From sequence record AP025967.1: a stretch of 64,000 bases of DNA. One strand, 5' to 3'. The notes below the pieces were generated by a model. That model was not told the DNA's origin and did no database searches. It saw only the letters and a list, made by a program, of their open reading frames with translations. A program made the position numbers and the translations under genes. Positions 4,015-41,500 of this stretch are shown here, piece by piece (position 1 is the stretch's first letter; the number at the start of each line of letters is the position of its first letter). This DNA comes from a plasmid.

Positions 4015-4518
4015 ATGGGAGAAGATATTATACTTTCTATTTTTTGGGGTTTATTTGGATTTATTCTTGCTTTTACTAATATAAAATTTTATCTTACAAC
4101 TTTAAGTGTTCTTGTTGTCTTTTCTATTTTAAATTATTGGATTAAAATTAACATAAAAGAATTTGTAAAATCTTATTTTTTAATATCTTTTATTATCTTT
4201 TTTATGGCTATTGTTATCATATTTTATCTTAGCTATGATCTTGAATTTTATAAATCGCTTGTATTACTTGATCCTCCAGAAATTGAAAAATTATCACCGC
4301 AAGAATATAGAGTGCGTAATTATTTTAAATTTTTAACCTTTGCAACTATGTTTTTTTTAGTAATCACATTTATCATATTTCCTTGTTTATTACAAGCTTA
4401 TTTATTTAAATGTTATAGCACAGGAGAAAAACGCAAAAAATTAAGTTGGCTTATAGGGTTTGTGTGTAATATCTTTTTATTAATTGCGAGTGTGTATGTG
4501 GTATATGAAAATCTTTAA
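4015..4518 (+). CDS. 4-TM membrane protein, candidate cognate immunity protein
   Basis: 167-aa ORF translationally coupled to 2482..4014. Paralogous to 4637..5140. Confidence 0.5.
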   Translation: MGEDIILSIFWGLFGFILAFTNIKFYLTTLSVLVVFSILNYWIKINIKEFVKSYFLISFIIFFMAIVIIFYLSYDLEFYKSLVLLDPPEIEKLSPQEYRVRNYFKFLTFATMFFLVITFIIFPCLLQAYLFKCYSTGEKRKKLSWLIGFVCNIFLLIASVYVVYENL

Positions 4519-4636
4519 AGACTATCAAAAATTCACTCCTTATGGTTTGGATTTTAGACTTTATAGTAAAGATTTTATCACTAAGCTTGATTTTAAAAAT
4601 AAAGCTTATAATGTGCTTTATAATACAGGAGTTTAA
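4519..4636. repeat. duplicate of the 3' end of 2482..4014 (compare 3897-4014), remnant left by tandem duplication of an effector-3'-end plus immunity unit
   Basis: Near-identical sequence (gactatcaaaaattcactccttatggtttgga...tacaggagtttaa) at both locations. Confidence 0.8.
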
Positions 4637-5140
4637 ATGGGAGATAGTATTGCACTTTCTATTGGCTGGGGTTTGATTTTGTTTATTGCTAGTTTTGCTA
4701 CTGTAAGAATTTATCTTATAACTTTAAGTATTCTTATTGCCTTTTCTATTTTAAATTATTGGATGAGAATTAACATAAAAGAATTTGTAAAATCTTATTT
4801 TTTAATATCTTTTATTATCTTTTTTATGGCTATTGTTATCATATTTTATCTTACTTATGATCTTGAAACCTCTAGATCGCTTGTATTGCTTGGTCCTCCA
4901 GAAATTGAAAAATTATCACCACAAGAGTATAAAGCGTATAATTATTTTGGATTTTTAAGTGGTATCACCATTGTCTTTTTAGCGATCACTTTTTTTATAC
5001 TTCCTTGTTTATTACAGGCTTATTTATTTAAATGCCATAGTACAGGAGAAAAATGCAAAAAATTAAGTTGGTTTATAGGGTTTGTGTGTAATGTTCCTAT
5101 ATTGATCTCAAGTGTTTATGTGATATATGAAAATCTTTAA
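4637..5140 (+). CDS. paralog of 4015..4518 (4-TM, 167 aa); orphan immunity-like gene preceded by a toxin 3' remnant
   Basis: Protein is ~70% identical to the 4015..4518 product by eye. Same length and TM layout. Confidence 0.5.
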   Translation: MGDSIALSIGWGLILFIASFATVRIYLITLSILIAFSILNYWMRINIKEFVKSYFLISFIIFFMAIVIIFYLTYDLETSRSLVLLGPPEIEKLSPQEYKAYNYFGFLSGITIVFLAITFFILPCLLQAYLFKCHSTGEKCKKLSWFIGFVCNVPILISSVYVIYENL

Positions 5141-5202
5141 AGACTATCAAAAATTTAATATATTTGATATAATATTCATTTATCTTAAATATTTAGAAAA
5201 AA

Positions 5203-7651
5203 ATGGATAGAGAATTATTTATAACAAGGCTTGCTTTTATAAACAATGATGAAATAGACACAATAGATAAAAATTCATCCATAGCATACTTAAAAGCCTT
5301 ATATCAATGTGAAAATTCCATAGCTATAAATTATAATCAAGAAGAGCTTTTCACCCAAGCTACCGCTATAAACAATCTAGGCTATAATTCTACTTTCACA
5401 AAAATCTTCATCCTAGATAAAGAAAAGCTCAATGATACCTATCTTGATGCTAGAAAAAGGCTTTATAAATCTATCAATACTTTAAAAGAAAAAAGAAATG
5501 AAAAAATAAAAGATATCCAAGACTATTTAAATAAAGAAATTTCCTTACAAGATAATCTAAATAATCAAAGCTTTAATACTAAGGAAAATGATGTTAATTT
5601 AATTTTAAACGAAGTATTTAACATAGAGCAATTTTATGATAAAAATACCAATACCATAGTATTAAAGACAAATAATATAAAAATCATATTCTTAGATAAA
5701 GTAAATTTACAAGATTTGCAAGATAATTCTAACAATACTTCTTTCATCTCTATGTCAAATTTGATCCATATTTATGATAATCATTGTGATATTTTTGCAA
5801 AAGATAGAAGTGTTTTGGATATAAAGGACATAGAAGAAAAATATCAAATAGATTTTAAAAGTTTAGATATAAAAATCTTCCTAAACTCCACCCTCCTTAC
5901 AGGCTCAAATGAACTTCCTAACAATCCTTTTTACTTTGGAGAATTAGATCAAGATAATACTATAAAACAAGATACACCTAGTTATTATTTTTCTCCTAAA
6001 GATGAAAGCAGTGGTTTAGGAAGACTTAGTATCTTTTATAAAAATGATGAACTTTGTTTGCTTAATTATTCTATATTAGAAAATTCTTTAAATATCAAAT
6101 TAGAATGTTTAAGCAAACAAAGCTTAGAGTATAAAGACTTAATTTCAAACACTTTAAAAGAACAAAAAACCACACAAGTAGATAAAAAACAAGCTATAGC
6201 TAAACTTCATGCTCTTTTAGAAAATCAAAACCTAGAATGTATCCATGGAGGTAAAGTCATACTTAAATCAAACAAAGGAAAAACTTTTAAAGATGATGGT
6301 GTGCCTATAATGCTAGAAAGTGATTTATTAAACTCTAGTATAGTAGCTTGTCCTAATACTATAGCAGGTGTAAGTGTTCCTTGTACTAAAGTTGTTAATG
6401 TAAAAGGATCCTTATCTCAAAAGAAAGTCAATAATGAATATGTAATCTTACAAGAACTCATCTCAGCTTGTAAAACAGATAAAGGCTTTGCTTTAAAAGT
6501 AAGCTTTACTCCTACTAAGTTTAAATTTGATCACAGCTTTGATCCTAAAGAGGGCTTAGGAGAACAAAGTAAAAATCAAATAGAGTTAAAAGAGCCTATA
6601 ATAAGACTTCATTATAAAAGTGATAGATTTCAAAAAGATAATTTACCTATCTATAATCTTTTAATCAATAATGAAAAAAAGAACAAAATAAGGCTTTAAA
6701 TGAATTTAATATAGATTTAAAAGATTTAAAAGATATAGAGGATATAAATATTCTTAATCAATTCAAACAAGACTTTAGTAAAGATTATGAATTTAAAGAA
6801 CTAAATCTTAGCTTTGATACTAATTTAATCAAACTTTATTTTATTATCCCAAAAAACATTGCTAAAGTTTATAAAAGTGCTTATAAGGAATTTGAAAATA
6901 AAGATTTAGGAGTAGGGTATTTTACACAGCTACATGAGTATGATAAAATCATCAAAAATGCTTTAGAAGATAATAAAGAATTAAACGAATATCATTTTAG
7001 TTTTTTAGCTCCTGCAAAAATGCAAAATTTAAAACTTCAAATCGCACAAGGACTAGATGAAATCTTAGAAGATGAAGATAGAAAACAAGAGCTTTATGTT
7101 TGTAAATTTGTGGTGGTAAATGGGGTTAGTGAAAACAATACTCAAGAAATTATCCCTGAAATGTTATAAGAATACAAACACAAGATGGCAGTGGGGAGTT
7201 TATTGAGATAGTATTTCCTAGTCAATTAGAACTCAATGATAAACCTTTGGAAGATGTGAGTTATACATTTGTTCCGGCTTTAAGAGGGATAAAGCAATTT
7301 TTTAAAGATACTGAGTATTTAAAACCCAGAACATTGACTAAAGATGAAGTGTTGCAGATAGTAGATAAACTGCCAAAAAATGTTCGAGATAAACGCAGGA
7401 GAATAGTTGAAAATAAAGAGGAATTAGACAAATTATGGAAAAAGTTAACTAAAAATTCTGAAGAGTTTGAAAATAAAGTAGATAAAAAATACGGACAGCC
7501 GATTTATATGAGAAAACTAGATGATCAAACTATTATACAATATAAGAAAACTTCTAAAAGCGGGGGTGAGACCATAGAGATAAATTCCAATAAGCCAAGA
7601 GGAAATCTTAAAACAATACATATAGAAAATGGGATAAAAAATGAAATATAG
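5203..7651 (+). pseudogene. polymorphic-toxin-like gene split over three successive reading frames (5203..6699, 6683..7169 with no start codon, 7160..7651). It contains a PAAR-like Cys motif (C.HGG...PIML...PCTKV) and a C-terminal toxin-like domain
   Basis: The second and third segments are long open frames lacking start codons, and each opens within a few nt of the previous stop. The first junction lies in an A7 tract (6674-6680). The N-terminal part is homologous to the mid region of the 1411-aa protein at 38579..42814 (KLNDTYL.ARK.LYKSI linker, SMSNLIHIYD.HCDIF). Confidence 0.5.
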
Positions 7652-8387
7652 GTATATAAAATGGGATGAAAACGAAAAGTGTGCTATTTTTTTTCCTGAT
7701 ATAGATTTTGATATATGGAAAAAAACCCAGCTTTTAGAGAATGATTATGCTAATCCAACTTTAATTATATCATCTCATTTAAAAGATAAGGTCGGTATTT
7801 TAGAGCTATTTGAATATTATATTTTGCTTATTTGTGGAAAAAGCATGGGTGTCTCAAGGTGGGAATGTAATAATTTAATTTTATTAGATACTTACGGCAT
7901 CGATAATATTAGCAGTCCATTTTATTTAAATACACCCAAACCTACCTATATAAGTGAATATATTAATGTCTTGGGGCAACTTTTTCTAGCAGGTTATATA
8001 GATTTTGGATCTTATTGTGATGAAGATAGAAATAAAATAGATTATCCCTCAAACTTATCTTATTATAAAGAAGATAAATATCAAGCTTGGATATATTTTA
8101 GAGATAATTTCTTTTATCAAGACAAATTTATTAGAGATTTGGACGATCCTGAAACATTAGACGAGGGTGGATATAGTCTTATTTTAAATGATGTTTCTTG
8201 GGATACACCACAATATTGGTCACAATACAATATCTGGATAGCAACAACCCCAAAAGGCACAAAATACTTCCAAGAAATCTTAGCTCCTAAATTTTACAAC
8301 AAATACAAAGATTTAGAAGTAGAGATTGATGATAAGGGCAATGTGCTTAGATGGATAGGAGAGATTAATAGAGACAAAAAATATTAG
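7641..8387 (+). CDS. hypothetical 248-aa protein, candidate immunity protein for the upstream toxin domain
   Basis: Overlaps the upstream ORF by 11 nt (coupled). No recognisable motif. Confidence 0.4.
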   Translation: MKYRYIKWDENEKCAIFFPDIDFDIWKKTQLLENDYANPTLIISSHLKDKVGILELFEYYILLICGKSMGVSRWECNNLILLDTYGIDNISSPFYLNTPKPTYISEYINVLGQLFLAGYIDFGSYCDEDRNKIDYPSNLSYYKEDKYQAWIYFRDNFFYQDKFIRDLDDPETLDEGGYSLILNDVSWDTPQYWSQYNIWIATTPKGTKYFQEILAPKFYNKYKDLEVEIDDKGNVLRWIGEINRDKKY

Positions 8388-8431
8388 CAAATAAAAAATG
8401 ATATAATAATGCTTTATATAAGGAATCTTTT

Positions 8432-11400
8432 ATGTTTATAAGTTCTAAAACAGAGTTAATTCAAACTATTAAAAATTTAACAATCAACAATAAAGAAGTT
8501 AAACAGATTGATTTTATTTATCCTAATTTTTCTATTTTACACGCTATATTAAAAAATATTGATTTTCATCAAAGAAAAATGCTATCTAAAAATCAAATAT
8601 TGACTATGGAAATACTAGAAATTTTAAAACAAACTTGTGATAATCACAATAGTATAGAAATAAATATCCATACCCTTAATGAGCTTGATGCTGGACAAAA
8701 TGTAAATTTAAAAGATTTATCAAGCAGTGAAATTTGCACTAAAGTTTATTTAGAAGACTTAGAAGAAGAAATTCAAGACAAGAAACAAGGTAAAGATTTT
8801 AATCTTTTTTATCATACAGATAAAAATAATCTTTGTATCGAATTTATCAATACTTTAAAAGAACTAGCCAAAGATTCTGAAGATATAACAACCTTAGACG
8901 AGTTAATCGAAAACATTGATCCTGATGATATAAGCAGTGAGAAATTTGATGATTTTAAGAAAAAAGTTTTAGAAAAGATTGGAAATGTCATAGAATCGGA
9001 TTTTTTCAAAAATAGCATAAGTCCCACTTTAAAAAATACTTATGAAAAATTTATCAATGAGTTGTTAGAACACATTAAAAAACTTGCCGAAGAAAAAGAA
9101 TATGAAAAAATTAAAATCATACTAAGTGCTATAGCGGGTGTTGCAATAGCCACAGTGGTAGCTGTTCTTACAGGTGGGGCAGGATTAGCTATTTTGGCTG
9201 CTGGTTTATTTTCTTTAATGGGTTCTGCAAGCGAGTATTATGAATTTGCTCAAAGAGATTATGGCACACTTTTAACGCCTTTAGCTGCATTTTTAGCCAC
9301 TAGATGTGCTATGTTTATTCATTATATTAATTCTCGCTTATTATCTTGTGTTTTAATTATTGATAAAAAAGAAATTATTGATTTAAGTGGTTTTGGATTA
9401 TATCTTGGAAGTGATGAAAGCAATATCGCTTCGAATTTGGCTTATAAAATCACTTTAAGCGAAGAAATAAAAAGCATTGAAAATATTTTTAGTGAAATCT
9501 TTTTAAACCCAGAACAAAAAGACAAGGGATATAAAAATACACCCAATGATTCAAAATCGAGCAATTTACCCGCTTTCATTTCAACGCAAAAATTATCTAA
9601 TTTGTATTTAAAAAACAATGCTATTTTAAAGAATTTGCAAGAAGATATTAAACAATTTATTTATTTTTCCTATATAGAAAGTCCAAATTTTAACTCAAGT
9701 AAACTAGCTGAATTTTTCGCACAAAAAAATCAAAATGCACAAATAGATTTAAATACAACTAAAATGAGTAAAAATTATTTGATTATTTCAAATATCCCCA
9801 ATAAATACAATGCAGGACTTAGTGAAAGTTTAACTCAAGAAATCGCCAACTATAATATACAAGATAAATACAGAAGAATTAAAAAAAATATTGATACTTC
9901 AAAAAAAACTTATGACAGCACAAGAGATTATAGCGAATATAGCATAGAAATGCCACAAGATGAAAATGAACCTTATATTTTACAATTAAGCCCTTTTGTG
10001 AAAATATCCAAAGAAGCTTATGAGAATAGTAAAAAAGCTTATGAAGATATGCAAAAGGTTTATAAATATTTAACAAATTTTGTTGCTACACCGCAGAAGC
10101 TACCAGAATTCGCAAAAACAGCTAAAGAAAAATTAGCAATATCAGAAAATGAGCCAATGATAGAAATAGTAAAAAAGACGGAAAATTTACGACATTGCGA
10201 ACGAATAAACATTTTAGCTTATATTGACTACAATAAAAAAATAAATGATAAAAAATGGCTTCCTTATTTTTATATCAAAAAATTCTTTAAACAAAACGAA
10301 GCCAAAGAATCCATCATAGAAAAAGAAAAGAAGATAGCTCATCAATATTTAACTTTTTTGAAAAAAGAGTTTTTTGAAAAATCGGATAAATCTTCATTTG
10401 GGAACTATTCTTTAATGGAATGTTTATTCATTTCATTTGTCTTGTATCAAGCTAAGCTTATTTTTCCAAATATCAATTTGGATTTGAAAAAATATGGAGG
10501 CAGTAATTTTGTATATATAAAATACTTAGAGGAAACTTATGTTTTATGGACAGATGAATGTCCAATATATGTAAATAATGAGCCAACAAATATTACAGCA
10601 TATGAAGTTGTATCGCAATTATTAAAAATACTTGACAAAAAAGATTATTCTTTTGTGGAAAATGATAGTTCGATAACTATAGATGATTTTTTTAATGAAT
10701 TATCAAAAGATTTAGATACAACAAATACATTAGATAAAAAAATAATCAAATTAAAGCAAATGTATCATTTAGATGAACAAAAATGCATTAAAGAATTTAT
10801 GAATTTAGACGAAGAAACGCAACGAGCTTTTGTTGCATGGATGGATATAGAGAAACAAATATCAGATTTATCAAAGCTTTTGGAACAGATGTATGGAAAA
10901 GAATATTTAAATAAGGCAAAAGAACAAAAAACAAGTGAAATATTTACTTATGCAATGTTAAAAATTTTATTAAGTGCTAGTCCTTTTATCAGCTTTACAG
11001 CTCAAATGTTGTGGGATTTTAATTTTTTAAAAACAATAGAATATGTTATTCAAGCTTGTATTAAAATAAACAAAGAAGGATTTAAAGAATTTTTTAAAGA
11101 ACAGCTTGGTATTTTTGCACCTCCAAAAAAGAATAGTATATATCATATACACATAAAATCTAATTTAATAATAAAAGCACGCTTGCAACAAATAGAAAAA
11201 GAATTAATTCATACTAAAATCCAAATGATTTTAGCACAAGAGATAAAATCCAATTTAATAATACAAAAAAATACATCCGGTTTAAATCTATTTATCACAA
11301 AGATAAAAGAATACTTTAATGAAAAACAAATTAAGATTTATTGGAGTGATAAATATATGAAGCAATTATTTATATACTCTAATCAAGAAAGCAATATATC

Positions 11401-14511: not shown

Positions 14512-14607
14512 AAAGATAGTAGATTTGGTAAATTTAAATCTTGTTAAGTTTATTATTTAGTTCAAATAAAAAATATAAAAAAATATAGAAAATCAATAGA
14601 AGAAGAG

Positions 14608-14833
14608 AAGTTTAGTTAAAAGTTTGTTTGGTAAGCCAAAGGGATTGTTCTAAACCCTGCAAAAGCAGGGGATACTCAATAAGCCTTGACATAGCAAAGC
14701 ATTAAGAGTATAATTATTAGAACAATGTTTAGCAATTTAATCACCGCCTTTCTAGGTTATGATTAATGCCAAAGGTAGCCGCCTTTGGCATCTACCTTTT
14801 ATAATTATACCAAACAAACTCTTTAACTTCTTA
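14608..14833. repeat. MITE-like element copy 1: imperfect ~24-bp terminal inverted repeats (aagtttagttaaaagtttgtttggta ... taccaaacaaactctttaacttctt) enclosing hairpins, a consensus promoter and a terminated ~90-nt transcript
   Basis: Same architecture and ~150 bp of near-identical sequence at 32478-32708. A third diverged copy lies at 32800-33036. Confidence 0.6.
14686..14714 (+). promoter_or_regulatory. consensus sigma70-type promoter TTGACA-17 nt-TATAAT inside MITE-like copy 1
   Basis: ttgaca(14686-14691), tagcaaagcattaagag spacer, tataat(14709-14714). A hairpin plus U-run terminator (gccaaaggtagccgcctttggc atctaccttttat) lies ~90 nt downstream. Confidence 0.5.
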
Positions 14834-14943
14834 AAACAGTCCATGAAAAGATTTTACTTTTTATTCTTTAGCACTTTGTTTTTTGCACCTTCATTTTTGC
14901 TTGGTGCAACTGAAATCTAATTTATACTTGGGGTTATGGCGAT

Positions 14944-20279: not shown

Positions 20280-20891
20280 TTAAAAAAGCATTGATTTTAT
20301 TTGGCATAACGCCTTAAAGGTATTATGTGATTTTGTGGTGATTCTAGGAGCTAAAGCCTTTTGATTTGTTATTTTTGTTTTATATAAATTTTCCCAGTGA
20401 AAACTTCTATTTCTGATTGTGAGTAAAAGGTTAAGAACAGTATTTGCTTTTTCTATATTGCTAAAACTATTTTTATATTTTTTATTATTTACATAGTGAA
20501 AGTAATATTCTTTGTTGTGTGCATAATATTTTTTAAAATTTATATTAGAAGAATTAATTATTTTTGCCTCTAAGTGTTCTAGCTTAATTATAAATATTAC
20601 ATCTCCTAAAGAAATTCTTGAAATGAGTTGATTGTTATCTAATATTTCTTTGTTTTGCAATTTAATTATTTTTTGTTTGATGTTTTCTTCGTTATAATTT
20701 CTTAACCATTCTAAATCTTTTTCTTTCATATGTTTATCTAGTAAATTTCTTAATACTAGTTCAAGTATTGCTATTTTTGTTGTTATGCTTGCAATCATTT
20801 TTAAATTATCAAAATGTTCCTAAATATTATTATAAGATTCTAATCTTTCTTTAGAAAACAAATATTCAAGATCGGTCTGTTCTGTTGGCAT
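20280..20891 (-). pseudogene. Abi_2-family abortive-infection-like gene with an in-frame TAG after codon 23 (plus-strand 20820-20822); a 172-aa ORF restarts at 20798
   Basis: N-terminal MPTEQTDLEYLFSKERLESYNNI* matches the Abi_2 start (fS.eRl..Y). Downstream LLTIRNRSFHWENL matches the Abi_2 IRN..aH motif. Confidence 0.5.
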
Positions 20892-21067
20892 GAATTTCTC
20901 TAATATTGGATTAATATTCTTAAATCATATCAAATTTTTACAAAAAATATTATTATTCACACTTGTAAGTACTTTTTTCAAGCTTTCTTTCCATTTCTTT
21001 TTTTGGAAATAAAATTATATGGTAAAATGACTTATCTCAAAAGCCTATTTTATCAATGTTTTCACTT

Positions 21068-31042: not shown

Positions 31043-31981
31043 ATGAAACTTAAAAATACTACAATAAGTGAAGATTTAGAGCGTTGGATAGAAGCTTATT
31101 TGAAACATATTCAAGCATTATCCTATTCAAATAATACTTTTTTACTTTATAGGCGTATTTTACTAGAATTTGTAGAATATTCTTTAGATTATCAAGATGA
31201 AATGCAAATAAACGATATAAAAACGACTTTTTTAGTCAATTTTCTTAATTATTTAGAAAATAATTCAAAAAATGGCAATAAACTATCAAAAAAAACAAAA
31301 ATAACTTATTTGAGAGCATTAACTAGCTTTTTTTCTTTTATAAGCGATAATAATGATGATTTGTTTATTTTTTCCTTTGATATGAAGAAAATTAGATTTA
31401 GAACAGAAAAATCAGAAGAAAAATTAAATTATCTTAATGAAAATGAAATTATAAGGCTAAATAATGTTTTAGAGAAAGAAAAAGCAAAAAAAGAAGTTTA
31501 CAATAGTTTTAGAAACTCTTTACTGATAAAACTTATGCTTTATGGAGGACTTAGAATTTCTGAAGCTTTAAATGTAAAACTTTGTGATTTTGAAGAGGTT
31601 GATGATGAAATATTAAAAATATCCATAATAGGCAAGGGCGGTAAAGAACAATTTGCATTTATTAAAAAAGAAGAAGTAGATGATGAGCTTGAATATTTTA
31701 AAGAAAATATCCAAGATAGTGATTACATAATGCAAACTAGCACAGGAAAACATTTAAACAGAAGTAATGCTTTTTTGATTGTAAATAATATTTACGCTAA
31801 AGCTTTGATCAGCAAAAAAGGACTTCATTTGCTTAGACACACTTTAGCCATGAGATTAACAGCCAAAGGAACAAACCTTGTGGTCATACAAAAAATTCTA
31901 AGACATGCAAATCTAAATACTACTACTATATATGCCAAAGCAACAAATGATACAATAAAAACTGCGTTATTGAATAATTAA
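31043..31981 (+). CDS. tyrosine site-specific recombinase/integrase (Xer/phage-integrase family)
   Basis: The C-terminal catalytic region has GGLRISEALN (R), LLRHTLAMRL (H-x-x-R) and LRHANLNTTTIYA (H, nucleophile Y). Confidence 0.75.
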   Translation: MKLKNTTISEDLERWIEAYLKHIQALSYSNNTFLLYRRILLEFVEYSLDYQDEMQINDIKTTFLVNFLNYLENNSKNGNKLSKKTKITYLRALTSFFSFISDNNDDLFIFSFDMKKIRFRTEKSEEKLNYLNENEIIRLNNVLEKEKAKKEVYNSFRNSLLIKLMLYGGLRISEALNVKLCDFEEVDDEILKISIIGKGGKEQFAFIKKEEVDDELEYFKENIQDSDYIMQTSTGKHLNRSNAFLIVNNIYAKALISKKGLHLLRHTLAMRLTAKGTNLVVIQKILRHANLNTTTIYAKATNDTIKTALLNN

Positions 31982-32023
31982 TTTTTCTAAAATTAATTAT
32001 TTACATAGACTTCTTTTTGAAGT

Positions 32024-32248
32024 CTATGCTGTGAATCTTTCTAATAAAAGTTTAGGTTCTCCGCGAAGTATTTTGATGAAATTTGCAATTCTTGATTGTA
32101 TCATTTCTACGGAATACATACCTCCTAAACCGCCTAAAGCATAAAATAATTCTTCGAAAATGTCTTCTTTGTTAAATTCAAGTTCTTCTATATCAATAAG
32201 ATCAGGAGTTCGGCTACATTTTTGTAAATTTTGATATATTTCAACCAA
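32024..32248 (-). CDS. hypothetical 74-aa protein
   Basis: ORF only. Confidence 0.25.
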   Translation of the reverse strand: MVEIYQNLQKCSRTPDLIDIEELEFNKEDIFEELFYALGGLGGMYSVEMIQSRIANFIKILRGEPKLLLERFTA

Positions 32249-32477
32249 AATATTAATTCTTTCTGGATTATTTTTAGTTTTTAGATAAGAATTTAAGTGT
32301 ATGATTAGGGTTTTTATGAGTTTTTCTCTATTTTTTTATTTTCAAGAAAACTCAAGAGGACTGTGATTTATAGTTAAAATAACCAAAAGAACATACTTGA
32401 AAAATTAATAATACAAAAAACATATACTTTTTAAAAAATAAAATTTTTCAAATATAGAAAATCAATAGAAGAAGAGA

Positions 32478-32708
32478 AGTTTAGTTAAAAGTTTGTTTGG
32501 TAAGCCAAAGGGATTGTTCTAAACCCTGCAAAAGCAGGGGATACTCAATAAGCCTTGACATAGCAAAGCATTAAGAGTATAATTATTAGAACAATTTTGA
32601 GCATTAAACTCACCTCCCTTCTGGGCGGTAAATTAACGCTAAAGGGTTGCAGCCCCTTTGGCGTTGCACCCTTTTATAATTATACCAAACAAATTCTTTG
32701 ACTTCTTA
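32478..32708. repeat. MITE-like element copy 2 (left ~150 bp identical to copy 1, right transcript part different)
   Basis: TIRs agtttagttaaaagtttgtttggta / taccaaacaaattctttgacttctt. Promoter ttgaca(32545-32550)-17-tataat(32568-32573). Terminator hairpin before the ttttataatt tail. Confidence 0.6.
32545..32573 (+). promoter_or_regulatory. consensus TTGACA-17-TATAAT promoter inside MITE-like copy 2
   Basis: Identical to the copy-1 promoter. Confidence 0.5.
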
Positions 32709-32799
32709 ATACATTTTATTTATGATTGAATCTTATCTTTTAGCATAAGCAAGAAAAATATAAATTAAAAAATAAAATAATTCAATAGAAAGGAAGATA

Positions 32800-33036
32800 G
32801 GCTTAGTTAAAAGTTTGTTTGATACCGCAGGTAACCCACTCCAGTTGCCCCAAAAATGGGGCTTGGTTAATATGCCTTGACTATAAATAAACAAAGCAGT
32901 ATAATAACCACTAGAATGAGTTGTACGAACCTCATTGAGTTACCTCCTTTCAGGGGTTTCACAATTTAGCCGTAGGGGGTCAGCCTGCGGCTTAAACCCT
33001 TAATGTAATTATACCAAACAAATTCTTTAACTTCTG
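32800..33036. repeat. MITE-like element copy 3 (diverged; same TIRs, hairpin, TTGACT-17-TATAAT promoter at 32875-32903, terminated transcript)
   Basis: TIRs gcttagttaaaagtttgtttga / taccaaacaaattctttaacttct. Terminator hairpin gccgtagggggtcagcctgcggc. Confidence 0.55.
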
Positions 33037-33169
33037 AAACAATTTATGAAAGATTTTTGTATAAGTTTTAATATTTTAATGAAAATTTAGGTGTAAGCTA
33101 TAAACAAGAAGCCTTTCGAGCTAGCTAAGAATACTTGGCTTTAGTTAGGAACCTCCTACTTCTAAGCGT

Positions 33170-33385
33170 TAGCGAAAGTAGGAGTAATTCACAGTTTTCA
33201 TTGTTTTAAAATTTTTCTCTTTGTTATTAATAGATAATTTCGATATATCATATCTATCCCAAAAGATAAGCTCTAAGGGTCGTTGTAAAAAATGATAAGT
33301 TAAGCTTATAAAAATAATCAAAGCTATAAGCACACCACAAGGTATATAAAATCTTTTAAGTTTGTAAAAAGGTTTTTTTATTGTT
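33170..33385 (-). pseudogene. 5' remnant of a 42798..43562-like gene (IKKPFYKLKRFYIPCGVLIALIIFISLTYHFLQRPLELIFWDRY...) with ATA in place of the start ATG
   Basis: About 190 bp near-identical to 43440-43562, then unrelated sequence and a stop after ~70 codons. Confidence 0.5.
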
Positions 33386-33391
33386 TATCCT

Positions 33392-34393
33392 TTACTCTGC
33401 TTTAAGCTCTCCACCTTTAACCACAAGTCCATTAGAGTCTATAATTACTTCTACTCCACCTGCTTTAATGATAACACAATCAGGTTTTGCATTAATAATT
33501 GTTTCTCCTACCTGTATAGTCGCTTCGCTATCGGCTTTTAACTCATGAATAGTTTTTGCATAAGTTGTGATATTATCAGCTACCATGCTTGTATTTTTAT
33601 CACTTTCAAATCCTATGGATTCATTACTTGTAAAAAGAATATTATCTTTGCTTTTATAATCCATCTCTTTCTCGCTTAACACTTGCATTTTATCACTGAC
33701 ATTAATACCATAATGCCCCTCAACCACTTCCTTTTTATTCCCCTTCACATTTCTTATTTCATCTTTATGTATAATAGTATTTTGATTTGCACCTATTTCT
33801 ATGTCTTTGTTTTCTCCTACAAACTCATGAGAGTTTTTAGCCACTCTTACTTTATTATCTACTCCTACATTTAAGGTATTGCTTAATCCTACTATGGTAT
33901 CTTTAGATAAGCCTACATTAGTTAAGTATTCTCCTCCTACATTGACATTTTTAGCTAAGTCTATGGTTTGAGTATGAACCTTTTTAATCCTTTCATTATA
34001 AATTCCATCCACTATAGAATCTTTATCATTTAAAATTCTTTGAGTGAAATTATGTTGTACTAATTCATCATAATCCTTTTGGGCTTTTAAATAAATTTGT
34101 TCTTTATCTTTTATATTTGAGAGGGTAAGTTCATTATAACCTTCTTCATTAACACCTATGGTTTTAGAAGAAAGAGAAGTTTGGTGATCATTAAAAGGAA
34201 GATTTACTAAACTTGGATTAGCCCCATTATACAAACTAGAGCTCACATAAGGTTTATCTATATCATCATCTAAAAAAGAAATAATCACTTCATCTCCTAA
34301 CTTTCTTTGATAAGGGCTTTAGTGATTTTAAAGGGTAGGGGATTTGAAGTAGAATTTAAAATATCAAGACTCATATAAGAATTAAGGGACATT
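33392..34393 (-). pseudogene. vgrG: vgrG remnant: the first ~31 codons of vgrG fused out of frame to its last 298 codons, an internal deletion of ~1.5 kb
   Basis: 33337-34299 is near-identical to 47864-48826 (the encoded 298 aa are identical to the VgrG C-terminus). 34300-34407 is near-identical to 50342-50449, which carries the vgrG start and upstream region. Confidence 0.7.
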
Positions 34394-34536
34394 GAAGATC
34401 CTTTTAGGGGTTGAGTTTATGGTGTTTATAATTTGGTATAAATCCACTATGTTTTTAATTTTTATATTTATTATTTTAACACAAATAGTCTAAATTTGAG
34501 TAGAAAAAAGGAATGGCTTATTTTTGTTATTAAAAT

Positions 34537-35175
34537 CTATTTTTTATCTAAATTTACTTCTATGATATTAGATTCTTTTTCGCTGTTTTGTGTATTTTCT
34601 AAACGCAATTTTATTTTATTTGCACCCATGGGAGTTAAAATAGTAAAATATCTAGTATTATTTTCATAAAAACCCCAAATTTCATCAAATTCCAAATAAT
34701 TTGCTAATCCATATTCTTTAAACTTACATTCTTTATAGATTGATTTTAAAAATTTTGGCACTTCATTAATAATAAAAAGTATTTTGATTTTTTCTTTTTG
34801 AGAATTAATATCCAATTCTTTAATCAGATTATTTTGATATTCTTGCTTAATTATTTCTATTATTTTTTTATTATCACAATTTTTTAAATCATTAAGATTA
34901 ACATCCATTTCTTTTTTTAACTCTAATTCTTGAGGAAAATAATTTGTATTCTTATAATTAGAAGCTTGTGGTAATAATATATTTAATTGTTCATCACTTT
35001 TAAAAATTAATTTCGCTATATTCATAATTTTAATATTTAATTCTAATATAGCGTAAAAATCTTTTTTAGAAAAAATTTTATCTACACCTTTTTTCATATT
35101 TACAATATCTAAATTTTCATCAGATAAAAATTCTATAAGTTTATTTAAAAATATAGGTTGAGGAAGCATTACCAC
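34537..35175 (-). CDS. hypothetical 212-aa protein
   Basis: ORF. Overlaps the upstream gene by 7 nt. Confidence 0.35.
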   Translation of the reverse strand: MVMLPQPIFLNKLIEFLSDENLDIVNMKKGVDKIFSKKDFYAILELNIKIMNIAKLIFKSDEQLNILLPQASNYKNTNYFPQELELKKEMDVNLNDLKNCDNKKIIEIIKQEYQNNLIKELDINSQKEKIKILFIINEVPKFLKSIYKECKFKEYGLANYLEFDEIWGFYENNTRYFTILTPMGANKIKLRLENTQNSEKESNIIEVNLDKK

Positions 35176-35519
35176 CCTTTAAGCTCTAAGCTTTCAAGCT
35201 CTTCTAAACTCATTGCTCTAATTAAAATCCTTTCTTCTGATTGAATTAAAGAAAAATCTTGCAATTTCTCTAAAGCTTCTTTATACTCTAAATACCCCAA
35301 AGGCTCATCTTTGCTAATGCTAAAAAAACTCAGCCTCCATTTGGTTTCTTTATCTTCATCATCTAGTTCAAAATTTTCCCAAGGTTTTTTAAAAAGAATA
35401 GTATCTGTATCTTCACTTAGGGTGAAATTTATTATTAACCCATCTGGTGTTTCATAAAGTTTAGGCATAGCTTCATAAGCTTCTTCCCAACGTCCTTGTA
35501 AAAGTTTTAAATCTTCCAT
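35169..35519 (-). CDS. hypothetical acidic 116-aa protein (immunity-protein-like size and composition)
   Basis: ORF only. Confidence 0.35.
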   Translation of the reverse strand: MEDLKLLQGRWEEAYEAMPKLYETPDGLIINFTLSEDTDTILFKKPWENFELDDEDKETKWRLSFFSISKDEPLGYLEYKEALEKLQDFSLIQSEERILIRAMSLEELESLELKGW

Positions 35520-35603
35520 AAATTTTTCCTTAAATATAAAATGAAATTATAACTAAAAATCTTTTTATATTAAATTGCAAAATTTTTTATAGCTTTTAGT
35601 CTT

Positions 35604-36170
35604 TCAATTTTCATATACCATAACTTCACTAAAACTAAAACCTAATAAATTATTTTCTCTCACTATTTTTCTAAATTCACTTGATACAAAAACAGGTACT
35701 TCATCATCTTTAATTCTAAATATATGGCTTCCATCAAGTTTTGATTTTTTTAAAACAGCTTTAGTAATACTTAGATATTCATCATTATCACCCATATAAG
35801 TATATATAGAATGTTCATAATCTAAAGCCTCAAGTGATTTTATTACATGCATAATTTTACAATCATAATAATTTATTTCCTGATTTTTAATTTCTACATC
35901 CAAATATTGCACACAATCTTTGATTAAATTTTCCATTAATTTTACAAATTTAGGAGAGACTATACGCCAACCACAGTCATTGTGTATAAGACCAGTTAGT
36001 ATGCTTCCTTCATCTTTATCGATTTCAAATGTAGGTGTTTGCCAATTTGTGATAGGTTTAGATTCTAAAAGTGCATATTCATTATTATTTTTTATATCTA
36101 CAAGATTACAAGAGCACCAATTATCCACATCATTATGATTATAGTTATACATCATTTTATAATATCTCAT
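35604..36170 (-). CDS. candidate immunity protein for the upstream nuclease-like toxin (188 aa)
   Basis: Start overlaps the toxin stop (ATGA). Role is inferred from position only. Confidence 0.4.
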   Translation of the reverse strand: MRYYKMMYNYNHNDVDNWCSCNLVDIKNNNEYALLESKPITNWQTPTFEIDKDEGSILTGLIHNDCGWRIVSPKFVKLMENLIKDCVQYLDVEIKNQEINYYDCKIMHVIKSLEALDYEHSIYTYMGDNDEYLSITKAVLKKSKLDGSHIFRIKDDEVPVFVSSEFRKIVRENNLLGFSFSEVMVYEN

Positions 36171-36946
36171 TGTTTTCTCTCCTTATAGTATTCTTTGCGA
36201 AGTATAGCAGGATTATTTTTGATTTCTTCTTTTAGTTTTTCAAATTCTTTTAAGAATTTATTCTTATCCCCTCTAGCTATTTTATCAATTTTCTTCATTT
36301 TTTCAAGAATGTATTCATGGTATTCATTGGGATGTCTTCCGCGATGTGGCATTTTAACTTTATTCCAATCTCCATCTAATTCTAAGTTATATTTTTTTAT
36401 TATTTTCTGAAATTCTTTAGTAAATCTTTTACTCTTATCAGTGGCAATGTGATGGGTTTGAATTGGTAATTGATTGTTTTTACCTCCTACCCCTTCCCAT
36501 CTTATCCTATCATACTTAATCTTAGCAAGAGGACTAGCTTGTATTTTAGCTAAAGCAAATTTAATCTTATTCTTTTTAGGTATAGTTAATATAGGATAAC
36601 CTTTATTACTTACTCCTATTAAACCCATTTGTAAAACAGAATGTTTATTATTAACTTTATGATCTGAATAAGTATAAGGAAATACCATAGCTACTTTAGT
36701 ACAAGGTCCTCCTAGTATAGGTGGATTTACACATCCACTTATACTAGCTCCTTGTATTTCATTATTAAGCATAATAGGAATATTGTCTGATTTTATTCTT
36801 TTAGCATTCTTTGCTTTTAACTTAACTCTACCTCCATGTAAGCATACTAAAGTATTATCTTCTAATATAGGATGCATACAAGAAGTATCAGGACTTATAT
36901 TAATATCTTTTATTCTAGGAATAAGGATTGTTCTTTTTCTAGCCAT
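36167..36946 (-). CDS. PAAR-like (DUF4280-like Cys motif) protein with C-terminal HNH/AHH-type nuclease-like toxin domain; candidate T6SS spike-tip effector
   Basis: N-terminal C.HGGRVKL...IPIML...GC.NPPILGGPCTKV is paralogous to the motif in 5203..6699. C-terminal QTHHIATDKSKRF ... MPHRGRHPNEYHEYI resembles Tox-AHH/HNH signatures ([AST]HH ... H.G.H...YH). Confidence 0.5.
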   Translation of the reverse strand: MARKRTILIPRIKDINISPDTSCMHPILEDNTLVCLHGGRVKLKAKNAKRIKSDNIPIMLNNEIQGASISGCVNPPILGGPCTKVAMVFPYTYSDHKVNNKHSVLQMGLIGVSNKGYPILTIPKKNKIKFALAKIQASPLAKIKYDRIRWEGVGGKNNQLPIQTHHIATDKSKRFTKEFQKIIKKYNLELDGDWNKVKMPHRGRHPNEYHEYILEKMKKIDKIARGDKNKFLKEFEKLKEEIKNNPAILRKEYYKERKQ

Positions 36947-37004
36947 GAAAAGTCTTGTGGGTTTTTAAACCCACTAAGATTAAATCAAATCATAAGGAAA
37001 GTAT

Positions 37005-37348
37005 TTACACAAAGCTAATTCTATTTTGCTTAATCATTCTAGCACGATTGATAAGAGCATAAAGGGCTATATCTTCATCATTATATATTTCTCCTTCAAA
37101 TTCTTCATCCCCATCAAACTCAATACTTTTCCATTCTATAATTTCTGCTTTAGCATTAGTGATAAAAGAAATATATTTATCTCTTTGTTTATCGTGTTTG
37201 ATACCTGCACATAAAGGTTTAAGTGCTTCATCATACCAAATCACTTCTAGATTTTCTTCTTTGATGATTTTTAGTGCTACTTCTTTTGTTAGATATTCTT
37301 TAATGTCTTTTCCATCGTATTTTTTTGTTCATAATTCATCTGCAACAT
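37005..37348 (-). pseudogene. small gene (~111 aa) broken by a 1-nt slip in an A7 tract (plus-strand T7 at 37320-37326); possible effector accessory or chaperone gene
   Basis: MNYEQK in one frame continues as KYDGKDIKEYLTKEVALKIIKEENLEVIWYDEALKPL... in the next frame, straight into ORF 37005..37244. Confidence 0.4.
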
Positions 37349-37394
37349 TTTATCAATAGCTTCTTTTTCACTATCAAAAGAATACTCAAGTTCA

Positions 37395-37545
37395 ACACCT
37401 CCTCTTTCTCAAGAAAGGACTGCGCTTATTAAGGCATACTTTTAGCTATGAAATTAACCGCCAAAGGAACAAACCTTGCAGTCATACAATAAAATTAAAG
37501 CATGCAAATCTAAATACAACAACTATACACAAAAGCCGATTATAA
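37395..37545 (+). pseudogene. degenerate 3' remnant of a second tyrosine-recombinase gene
   Basis: About 75% nucleotide similarity to 31835-31981 (the end of the integrase at 31043..31981), with stops and frameshifts. Confidence 0.5.
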
Positions 37546-37702
37546 TTATTTTTATGTCAAAAATCCTATAAAATATATTTCTTTTACTTTTTATTGCTCA
37601 TCTTTTCTAAATAAACTTTCTAAAATAAGTCAGTCTTCACGCCGATTTTTCATCCTGATTGATTGCATTAAAGTGAGCAAATTTAATTTATTTCAACTAA
37701 GT

Positions 37703-38566
37703 CTATTTTTGTTTAAAATATTGCGCATATTCAAAGGGTCTTTCTTTTAGTTTAAAATAAAATTTATTATGAAATTGGGTTGTGGTATTTAAAGTTTTTT
37801 GAAGAGTTCCTAAAGAATATTCTAAAGCCCCATTATATATTATCTCTTCTTTTTGCAAATAACCCACAGCATATTCCAAAGGAGAGGTATTTGAGAAAAA
37901 TAATTCAATAAGATTAAAATTTAAATGATTATTCGCTTCTATATAAAAAGGATGATTCTTATGTATTTTATAGGTAGCTAAATTAAAAAATAAATTATTT
38001 TTATCTTGATACAAACCTATATCATAAGCAATGATAAATTTTCTCAAACTCCATACAAGATAAGAATAAAATAAATCATCGCTAAAATCTACTACTTCAT
38101 AGTCATTTTTTTGCACCATTTCATCTAGCATTGAAATTAGTTCAAATTTATTTAAATTTTTATTTTCGATATAGTAAAGTTTAATACCATGAACTTGATT
38201 AATTTCATTAATATAAGAAGTTAAAAATTCAATATTATCTTTATAAAGTTTTAAGAAATATTTTTTTAATTCTAAATTATCTATAATTTTATAGGGGTTA
38301 TTTTTGAAGAAAAGTTCTTTAAGTCCTTCAAAGCAATTCTCACCAATATTAAAAGCTTTAAAAATGATATTTTTTTCTTTGATTATAATTTTACCTAAAT
38401 AAATGCTTGTTTCAAATTTGAAATTTCTCTTAAGATTATATTCTTTTTTTAAGAATTCTTCATCAAGTCCTTTTATACTCATATCACTTTGCAAGCCCAA
38501 GTAAATAGTTTTATCTTCTCTTATATTGGAGATATAATCTTTAAGCGGTATTTTTATAGTTTTCAT
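37703..38566 (-). CDS. hypothetical 287-aa protein immediately downstream of the large HExxH protein; candidate immunity protein
   Basis: ORF 12 nt after the effector stop. Role is inferred from position. Confidence 0.4.
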   Translation of the reverse strand: MKTIKIPLKDYISNIREDKTIYLGLQSDMSIKGLDEEFLKKEYNLKRNFKFETSIYLGKIIIKEKNIIFKAFNIGENCFEGLKELFFKNNPYKIIDNLELKKYFLKLYKDNIEFLTSYINEINQVHGIKLYYIENKNLNKFELISMLDEMVQKNDYEVVDFSDDLFYSYLVWSLRKFIIAYDIGLYQDKNNLFFNLATYKIHKNHPFYIEANNHLNFNLIELFFSNTSPLEYAVGYLQKEEIIYNGALEYSLGTLQKTLNTTTQFHNKFYFKLKERPFEYAQYFKQK

Positions 38567-38578
38567 TATTTTCCTTGA

Positions 38579-41500
38579 TTATAAACTTCTACCTATGAGG
38601 GTTTCTACATATCTTGGATCTCTTTCATTGGGCTGAATTTCATAAGCATCTTGTATAGCACCTATATTGCAACCTACTAAATAATTCTCACTAGGATCGC
38701 AAATTCTACTAAATTTATCAAAAATAATTTTCTCATTGATATAAGCTTTTTCAGAATAAAAAACATATCTGCCTAGAGCATCCATATTGTGATTATAATA
38801 TTTTTCTATATAAAAATGCCTACATTCGTGAAAAACCGTTTTTGCAAATTCTTTAAAATAAGCTTTTAAAATGTATTGATTTAATCTGACCTTATTTTCT
38901 TCATAAGCTCCAAATGATAAAGATCCGCTAGGCTTTTGGCTATAAAAGACTACATTTTCTAAAGGTAAATTAAATTCTTTACAAAGAGTTTGAGTTAAAG
39001 CTTTTAGAAAATCTTTACATTCTTTAAGATCTCTGTTTTTGTTATTTAAAAGCTCTGTGTGGAATTGTTTAAAACTTTTACCATTCTTATACTCTAAAGG
39101 TAAAATTTTATTAATTATGGTGCTAATATATTTGCCATCTCTATCTTGAAGATAATTTCCTTTATCTTTTTCTGATATACTTGTTAAAAATTCCTTATTG
39201 ATTAAATCAAATCTATAGTATATATAAGCGATTTTTCCGGCAAATTGAGGATAGGTTCTGAGATAGGTAAAAAAGTCTCTTTTTTCTTGATTTTTTAAAT
39301 TTGCCCTTAAAAACCAATTTGCCTCTTCAACACTATCGATTGATTTTTGTCGGTTAAGATTATATACATTAAGGGCTTTTAGCTCCTCTCTTGTAAATAA
39401 TTCTTTCACCCTATCATCTCTACCAGAGCCAACTTTAAAACTCATATCTATGATTTTATAAGCATCATTTAAATTAGGAAGTCTTTTAAATTTATTTTTA
39501 TCTTCATAAGCAAAAACTAAAGCATAATATTTATCAAATTCTTCTTCATTAGCCCTTGTTAGAGGTAAACTAAAGCCTATTTTTTCAAATTCTTCATCTT
39601 TTTCCTCATCATCCATTTCCCAGCATTCATGAAAATATTTACTTTCGTCTTTTAAAAACTTTATATCTTTAAATTCTAAATGCTCTTTACCTTCTAAAAT
39701 TCTTTGAAGTCCTGCTTCATTTTGAATTTGAGCTAAAGCCCAAACGATATTTACATCATCTTCTAAACCATCAACTTCGCATTCTACATAAGTCCCTGGT
39801 GCAAAATTTGCCTTTTCATCGATAATAATCCTTACACTTTTTTCAGCACTTACCACATCTTCATCTTCATCGAGTTCCCATTCTATTTCTTTTATGAAAT
39901 TTACTTTAGATTTCTCTTGCTTAGGATACTCTACTCTTAAAGAAACAATTCCTTCCTTCTCATCTTGTATAAACTTAGCTTGCTTACTTAAATCCTCTAA
40001 TAACTGTGCTTGTGCCATACCTATGCTACCATTACTGCCAAATTCTCCCTTTTCATTGATAGAGTAAAGATATAGATTATCTTTTATTATGCTTTGCTCT
40101 TTTTTATCTTTTTTGCTTGTTTTGTTTTCTTTTTCATTACTTTCTTTTATTTTTACTTCTTTAAAAGTTTTAGAACATTCTTTATTGGTATATAATCTTA
40201 CACAACATTTTCCCCAAGTTTTTCCTATTTCAAAGGGATAATCTTTTAAAAAGCTAGGGTTAGTATCTTTAGCTATTTCATTAATCTTTAAATAATATTC
40301 TCCTTCAGGCAAAGTGCCAAATCTATCTTTAATACTTTCATCATCATAATAAAAATAAGCTTTTTTACCTTTACTTGTATCTTTTTCATCTTGGTAAAAA
40401 TAATTTGCAATTTGCTTTTTACTTCTTTTTTCATTATCTGCCTTAGCAGTACCACTTCTTGCCATATAAGAATTAATTAATTCATTTCCTTTATAATGAT
40501 AGAGATTAAATCCATCATAAACTAAATGATCTTTTGCTTTAAATTTAAGTATGAGTCCAACTTTGTGATGGGTATAATTATTAAATATCCTTTTAGCATT
40601 TTGTAAAGGAGTAGGAAAATAAGCTTCACTTTCATCAAGCTTTACTTTAAAGCTATAACAATCACTAAAATACTTTTCTTTATCAAATCTTATTTTACCC
40701 TTTTCATCACTGCGTCTTTTTAGATTAACTACTCTTAAAGCTTCATCATGTTTAAAACCTTTGATAATGATTTTAGCATTAGCAATGGGTTTATTGTGTT
40801 CATCTTTTAAATATAAAGTGATAAAGCAAGGTTCTTTAGCACTGGATGAGGATTCATTTAAGGGTTCTTTTGAAATTTTGTTAAAACTTGTATTGTTGTA
40901 AACAATTTCTTTTTTAAGCTCTTTGGGTTCTAGTTTAATATTTAAACTTTCTTCTAATAAAGAATAATTTTTAATCTTTGCATTATGATTGTTATATTTT
41001 ATATTCAAATCCCCTAGAGAATTTAAATCCTCTTTATCGTATTTAAAATAATAAAGCAAATTTTCTTCTTTATCTTCAAATGAAAACTCATTATTTTCTT
41101 TTGCACCTAAAAGAAGTTTTTCGTAAAAAAACACTCTTGTATTAAATTCTTTAAATTTAATATCATATTCTTTTTCTATTCTTTTAATGTCAAGTAAAGA
41201 TTCATTTTTAATAAAAATATCGCAATGACTATCATAAATATGGATTAAATTTGACATCGATGAAGCATTATTTAAAAAGATAATTTTTTTATTTTTGTCT
41301 TTATTTTCTAAGATGAAATGGTTTAGGTTTTTAGAGTGGGAAGATAAAAGATAAAAATCTTGTTCTTTTATGCTATTTGTATTTTCTTTTGTATCACTTT
41401 CTTGATTTGAATTTTCATCTTGATTTAAATTTTTATTTATTTCTTTATTTTTATTTTTATTTATTGTTTCGTCTTTACTATTTATTTCTTTATTTACAAT

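Follow-up and report, generated by a model that had tools for sequence, protein, structure and literature searches.

A Campylobacter jejuni T6SS plasmid carries, at the distal end of its effector region, a partial vgrG gene. What is it, and how did it come to share long identical segments with an intact vgrG on the same molecule? The question concerns a 64,000-nucleotide stretch of plasmid DNA (record AP025967.1; ‘the window’ below), AT-rich at 26% G+C, whose main VgrG (838 aa, 47919..50435, minus strand) is identical to BDL79601.1 from the 129,655-bp plasmid of C. jejuni THJ022. In the region of the partial gene (‘the remnant’), several complete C. jejuni T6SS plasmids, pRM3194 and pCJDM202 among them, are 99.9% identical to it. 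A sequence-only reading of the window had described the remnant as an internally deleted vgrG created by a 963-bp duplication, and as the mark of either a decayed second vgrG island or a recombination scar.

The main gene is a genuine VgrG, with Pfam matches to Phage_GPD (residues 74-361), Phage_base_V (residues 513-560) and Gp5_trimer_C and with TssG and TssF encoded upstream; a homologue search with the full protein returned near-identical full-length proteins only. Along the minus strand, tssF, tssG and vgrG are followed by mostly unannotated genes, an AHH nuclease gene, an Imm11/DUF1629 gene, a DUF4299 gene, a 210/212-aa gene and the remnant, with a tyrosine recombinase beyond. The remnant lies where the variable region borders the backbone, adjoining the integrase. 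The main gene, the remnant and its downstream neighbor comprise the following parts:

47919..50435, minus strand: intact main vgrG (tssI), 838 aa, right after tssF and tssG; partner of the remnant's repeats (47864-48826 and 50343-50448)
34300..34405, minus strand: 5' piece of the remnant; a 13-nt leader with a ribosome-binding site, ATG at 34392-34390, codons 1-31, then TAG at 34299-34297
33392..34299, minus strand: 3' piece of the remnant, gene nt 1610-2517; a 298-codon ORF from GTG at 34288 to TAA at 33392, equal to residues 541-838
33337..33391, minus strand: last part of the 963-bp repeat; a 10-nt intergenic spacer, then 15 codons (IKKPFYKLKRFYIPC) from the gene after vgrG, with ATA for ATG in both copies
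33169..33381, minus strand: truncated downstream gene, 70 codons where its start is intact (WP_002861585.1, pAR-0411)

Self-comparison of the window, a check that the sequence-only reading had itself proposed, bears out the larger repeat exactly: 33337-34299 and 47864-48826 are identical at 963 of 963 positions, far more than chance would give, and the match reaches 33326/47853 if four mismatches are allowed. The 963 nt consist of 908 nt of the vgrG 3' end (stop codon included), a 10-nt intergenic spacer and the first 15 codons of the ORF behind it; the 298 vgrG codons counted earlier are right, and the approximately 18 codons ascribed to the downstream gene are reached only by counting the four-mismatch extension. 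The smaller repeat is also real, but its coordinates had been set one base off. As first noted, 34300-34407 agrees with 50342-50449 at only 42 of 108 positions; moved by one, to 50343-50450, it agrees at 107 of 108. The exact pair is 34300-34405 and 50343-50448, 106 nt that run from the 13-nt leader through the start codon (34392) to codon 31 (the gene start that had been reported as retained), and the alignment places a 1-nt indel further upstream.

The two pieces of the remnant meet at AGT/TAG, where the N-terminal frame stops directly past codon 31, and the sequence resumes in the 3' piece with the second base of codon 537 (gene nt 1610). Gene nt 94-1609, the central 1.5 kb of the earlier description, are missing, and because these 1,516 nt are not divisible by 3 (1516 mod 3 = 1), the C-terminal 298 codons (V541-E838) lie in a different frame, again as described; no continuous reading frame runs from start to stop. 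A search for exact microhomology at the deletion junction found none, and only an imperfect AAGAA motif. The gp27-like hub (Phage_GPD) falls wholly inside the deleted segment, and what the 298-codon ORF still covers is the last part of the OB fold, followed by the gp5-type beta-helix and the C-terminal region. Phage_base_V, found at residues 513-560 of the main gene product, has zero Pfam match in this ORF, which starts at residue 541; the beta-helix is kept (Gp5_trimer_C, E=3.8e-20 in Pfam; TIGR03361 positions 426-512), and the ORF aligns with residues 432-592 of P. aeruginosa VgrG1. With the hub and half of the OB fold lost and a stop past codon 31, a functional spike protein could not be made, and the remnant, judged from its sequence, most likely has no function as a gene.

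Repeats of about 1 kb trouble assemblers, and the records of pCJDM202 and pCJDM67L (NZ_CP014743.1 and NZ_CP014745.1) have as their position 1 the base 33337, the end of the 963-bp repeat, which suggests that those assemblies were broken or circularised there. A collapsed or mis-joined repeat, with no second copy in the cell, might accordingly be suspected in the window as well, and the distribution of the junction makes this extremely unlikely. A 26-nt sequence spanning the junction occurs exactly once in each of 18 loci examined; of the 38 Campylobacter T6SS plasmids in PLSDB, 16, complete molecules from different laboratories, match a 201-nt probe over the junction along its full length, and the junction is also present in two complete chromosomes. 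The exact 298-aa product was found in ten places, on plasmid contigs and two complete chromosomes, all collinear across the junction, and the unique flanks on either side are collinear in all loci. The chromosomal copies, moreover, differ from their main genes by a 5-nt patch, which collapse could not produce. The same junction in so many plasmids and in two chromosomes argues for one inherited deletion rather than an artefact of assembly. A search of one genome per species gave no match to the 26-nt junction, which was met only in strain-level collections.

Some of these loci carry rearrangements of their own. In the C. jejuni chromosome CP155851.1 (1-9790), homology to the window begins at 34498, just upstream of the remnant, and a prophage (tail tube, tape measure, Dam methylase, S24 repressor) replaces the 210-aa, DUF4299 and AHH genes. 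In UIGQ01000002.1, 15906-19732 is a tandem duplicate of a backbone segment (33463..29638 of the window) that starts 72 nt inside the 3' end of the remnant and so yields a third partial vgrG 3' fragment. The window holds further internal repeats, namely 41481-41798 versus 44577-44891 (a 79% match of a 1411-aa gene with a 337-aa gene), 3896-4533 versus 4518-5155 (an 87% tandem duplicate, two 167-aa genes) and, close to its start, 1-140 versus 1011-1150 (a perfect 140-nt repeat).

Comparison with relatives, which the sequence-only reading had also proposed, upholds its suggestion of a decayed second vgrG island. C. coli plasmids pCOS503 and pAR-0411 and the C. jejuni chromosome CP148219 have an intact 838-aa orphan vgrG where the window has the remnant, likewise preceded by the DUF4299 and 210-aa genes, and the flanks of the remnant match pCOS503 at 96.5-97.5%, continuing past the stretch common to the main gene. 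C. coli pAR-0411 carries three vgrG genes in series: the main vgrG with an ankyrin/toxin cassette, then DUF4299, 210-aa gene and vgrG with a second cassette, then DUF4299, 210-aa gene and remnant. On the upstream side its remnant matches the intact middle copy over 1,277 bp with 0 mismatches and 1 gap, and on the downstream side over 1,050 bp at 100%. The repeated unit is the whole vgrG module and the lesion a 1,516-bp internal deletion, and the notion that a 963-bp duplication created the remnant has to be given up. The remnant resembles these orphans, and the orphan VgrG2 of C. jejuni 488 (CJ488_0998, 838 aa, as given in the available part of Robinson et al. 2021, PMC8285248), in its distal position in the variable region and its preceding DUF4299 and 210-aa genes, and its retained parts are 96.5-99% identical in nucleotide sequence to intact orphan vgrG2 copies; unlike them, it lacks nt 94-1609, is out of frame and is followed by a gene cut to 70 codons.

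These alignments also bear on a more recent origin, in which a 963-bp piece of the main vgrG was copied and pasted beside a short 5' fragment. Such a history would account for the 100% match to the main gene over 963 nt and for its abrupt end at 33337/47864. It is nevertheless very improbable, given that both flanks of the remnant match intact orphan modules past the limits of identity with the main copy, that within pAR-0411 the homology to an intact vgrG2 module amounts to 1,277 + 1,050 bp, and that the junction is common to plasmids whose 963-nt haplotypes lie 3-16 sites apart; a junction shared by differing haplotypes is older than the present identity. In pAR-0411, the two full-length vgrG copies (6715-9362 and 20809-23324) are both annotated as the same 148-aa ORF (with the same WP accession) plus a longer second ORF, which reflects either a frameshift that conversion has carried from one copy to the other or a sequencing error in a homopolymer.

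The genes upstream of the remnant help to define the module:

34537..35175 and 35169..35519, minus strand: 210/212-aa gene and DUF4299 gene, the pair ahead of the remnant
35604..36170, minus strand: Imm11/DUF1629 immunity gene (Pfam Imm11, E=1.6e-21)
36167..36946, minus strand: AHH nuclease effector (Pfam AHH, E=3.8e-18)
37410..37527, plus strand: integrase 3'-end-like fragment, 118 nt, 81.5% to 31813-31930; a degenerate copy

The DUF4299/210-aa pair precedes the remnant and all orphan vgrG2 copies examined, and in Table 2 of PMC8285248 CJ488_0996/0997 stand ahead of VgrG2 in strain 488. An effector-immunity pair (AHH nuclease and Imm11) is present further upstream; it may be functionally linked to this vgrG copy, and would then represent the ‘upstream cargo’ of the remnant. 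Of the PAAR-like/nuclease module proposed earlier at 34.5-37.3 kb, the nuclease and its Imm11 partner are supported by Pfam, and the PAAR-like part was not confirmed. A PAAR-like N-terminus of the AHH protein is a published prediction, found in the available part of PMC8285248; searches of that N-terminus for PAAR, DUF4280 or DUF4150 gave no Pfam or NCBIfam match even at E<=10, a PDB profile search gave zero match, its AlphaFold model (pLDDT 40) is too low in confidence for use, and its homologues come from Campylobacter and Helicobacter only. The 118-nt integrase fragment abuts 37410, where homology to the orphan-vgrG module of pCOS503 begins, and marks the inner border of that module; it suggests that the end of an older element is buried at 37410-37527.

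On the other side, the homology of the downstream gene to an intact family of 254-257 aa (42798..43562; pCOS503) ends past codon 44, at 33250, the point at which the T6SS variable region gives way to the backbone of the plasmid or island. This position, at the border and beside an integrase, raises the thought that the remnant is the footprint of insertion of a T6SS module into a CJIE3-type backbone, like CJE1141/CJE1142 of C. jejuni RM1221, and vgrG fragments have indeed been proposed as mediators of T6SS integration (PMC3667781). Islands of the RM1221 type (n=2), however, end with a 420-aa gene and a 70-aa gene, lack the remnant and carry a different lesion, and the remnant retains the upstream genes and leader of an orphan module. 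The junction was not seen at the border of any T6SS-free element lacking a history of an orphan module; an origin as an insertion footprint is hardly to be expected.

The gene after vgrG has an ATA start at 33379-33381 and at 47906-47908, and ATG in pAR-0411, pCOS503 and a third paralogue (43562); its N-terminal 15 codons (MKKPFYKLKRFYIPC) are common to three otherwise divergent downstream genes. The window also holds three copies of a non-coding unit of approximately 310 bp, at 32434-32740, 32754-33070 and 14565-14870, the first two in tandem just downstream of the remnant. Each contains a conserved promoter-like site (TTGACA-17-TATAAT, plus strand), a motif resembling an anti-Shine-Dalgarno sequence (CACCTCC(C/T)TTC) and a GC-rich hairpin, and opposite lies a short hydrophobic ORF with VKAY at its end (32545..32613 and 32867..32962, minus strand). 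To judge by these elements the units look like type I toxin-antitoxin modules, with no Rfam match (an Rfam search of the whole window gave zero matches).

If the deletion is old, the perfect identity of the remnant to the main gene calls for an explanation of its own. The 963-nt core was compared in seven plasmids (AP025967.1, pRM3194, pBCH-10927, pA48, pAR-0412, C. coli pAR-0411 and C. coli FDAARGOS_1466). Remnant and co-resident intact vgrG show 0 differences in all seven, and the plasmids fall into five haplotypes, 3-16 differences apart, so that only five independent haplotypes stand behind the comparison, and short-read polishing of repeats could inflate the identity of the copies in some assemblies. 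Copies within a replicon are thus more alike than the same copy is between replicons across the seven plasmids. The exception is found in chromosomes CP155851 and CP169447, where remnant and main copy differ by one 5-nt patch; homogenisation is therefore not universal. In pAR-0411 and FDAARGOS_1466 the repeat within the plasmid extends over 1,050 nt at 100%, and the ATG to ATA change appears in both copies in the AP025967.1 lineage, other plasmids (including pAR-0411) keeping ATG. Since the junction is common to diverged plasmids, the deletion predates the divergence of the haplotypes, and parallel changes can then arise only if sequence passes from one copy to the other, through gene conversion or recurrent crossing-over. 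Identity that holds within each of seven plasmids, though the plasmids themselves differ, is best explained by later homogenisation, and this pattern in the aligned copies points to concerted evolution by gene conversion.

Homogenisation also affects how the integrity of the 298-codon ORF is to be read. The ORF is intact in all copies seen and is annotated as a CDS (WP_011049861.1), and a native AGGAG stands 5 nt before its GTG, right after the TAG, where re-initiation is possible; it might therefore be expressed as a free C-terminal fragment of VgrG (beta-helix and tip region) that has its own role, such as binding PAAR-like or adaptor proteins or modulating spike assembly. An intact ORF is nonetheless expected without selection if the segment is continually recopied from an intact gene, and the fragment would be without the hub and most of the OB fold that are needed for seating on Hcp and the baseplate. 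A scan for promoters and terminators near the remnant gave fewer hits than shuffled sequence did, and is uninformative. There is a small chance that the ORF undergoes some translation; a functional free fragment seems improbable.

Related plasmids indicate what the vgrG repeats may do. FDAARGOS_1466 corresponds to pAR-0411 minus the 14 kb between the main and second vgrG, joined within their shared 1.7-kb N-terminal part. Its layout is that of AP025967.1, which explains why the main VgrG of the latter has 838 aa and a C-terminus of the vgrG2 type. NZ_CP040614, in turn, corresponds to the window minus 34300..48826, leaving tssG, vgrG, the 70-aa gene and the integrase in succession; this structure is the very product that crossing-over in the 963-bp repeat would give, and the cassette-free state is either a deletion derivative or an ancestor. 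The earlier alternative of a recombination scar is partly right: the repeat is a substrate for recombination, in that natural plasmids match the expected products, and the origin of the remnant lies in a decayed orphan gene. It is tempting to go further and propose that the remnant is kept as a homology cassette, bracketing with the intact vgrG a 14.5-kb effector array that RecA-dependent crossing-over excises, reinserts or exchanges between plasmids and chromosomal islands, frequent conversion keeping the hinge efficient; this is a tentative suggestion, and on balance an unlikely one.

The reading that is probably correct, and that we hold with some assurance, is that the remnant, a pseudogene, represents the distal one of the repeated orphan vgrG2 modules (DUF4299, 210-aa gene, vgrG2 and the beginning of the gene behind it), located where the T6SS effector region ends, and that it was disabled by one old deletion, is homogenised with the main gene and serves as a hinge of the array. 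Its history would begin with a single ancestral illegitimate deletion, the result of which is seen in the loss of gene nt 94-1609, and so of the entire gp27-like hub along with half of the OB fold, and in the stop past codon 31. The remaining pieces, of 106 nt and 963-1,050 nt, would then have persisted as direct repeats of the intact vgrG approximately 14.5 kb away, in the observed pattern of continued identity, presumably through homologous recombination or gene conversion. Crossing-over at the vgrG repeats would remove or add whole effector cassettes, as natural variants illustrate (the direction of change being our inference), and through such gain and loss the remnant would act as the distal hinge of the array. 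The plasmid may have borne the loss of this copy since its main VgrG likewise ends in a C-terminus of the vgrG2 type; with that C-terminus identical, the DUF4299, 210-aa and AHH genes could still work with the main VgrG.

The remnant is a known kind of object, in that both vgrG pseudogenes and recombination at vgrG have been described before. Bleumink-Pluym et al. 2013 (PMC3667781) reported the split vgrG CJE1141/CJE1142 in the T6SS-negative CJIE3 of C. jejuni RM1221. Like the remnant, this is a vgrG pseudogene on the same family of elements, and its 3' 963 nt are identical to those of the remnant; it differs in being a near-full-length main vgrG, split and with the T6SS core deleted upstream, the remnant being an internally deleted orphan copy. 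That the remnant is itself the CJE1141/CJE1142 of RM1221 was ruled out: RM1221-like islands have the main vgrG split into 471 + 315 aa beside an FHA gene. Robinson et al. 2021 (PMC8285248) described the variable region together with VgrG1 and VgrG2, and their Table 2 includes A0W69_08910 of pCJDM202 as a 35% match to VgrG2. This is the same locus as the remnant (the gene order A0W69_08910-08930 matches, and the sequences are 99.9% identical), and it appears in the available part of that paper as a table entry only, with its internal deletion, spread and identity to the main gene unmentioned there. In a later genus-wide survey, fragmented VgrG ORFs were filtered out.

To this the present analysis makes a modest addition: the remnant appears to undergo concerted evolution with the active gene and, together with it, flanks an effector array that recombines. 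The T6SS effector region of Campylobacter, on plasmids and islands alike, can be viewed as a set of repeated vgrG modules that recombine mutually, with three natural states that differ by whole cassettes. For annotators, and for the mining of effectors, a caution follows, in that a 298-aa ‘hypothetical’ or ‘VgrG’ protein is here a pseudogene fragment, and the region contains perfect repeats of nearly 1 kb.

Orphan rhs-CT and cdiA-CT modules, which lie downstream of Rhs and CdiA genes, encode alternative toxin tips together with their own immunity genes. The remnant resembles such Rhs/CDI orphans in being a downstream 3' gene fragment, homologous to the main gene and able to recombine with it; unlike them, it has a C-terminus identical to that of the main gene and thus no alternative tip, and is followed only by a truncated 70-codon gene. 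Another parallel comes from Vibrio cholerae, in which recombination at vgrG is an established route of effector-module turnover (Kirchberger et al. 2017, PMC5361080). In both genera, conserved vgrG sequence provides the homology arm for the gain, loss and replacement of downstream effector modules; the relics in Vibrio are mainly orphan immunity genes, whereas the relic in Campylobacter is a vgrG copy itself, homogenised with the active gene.
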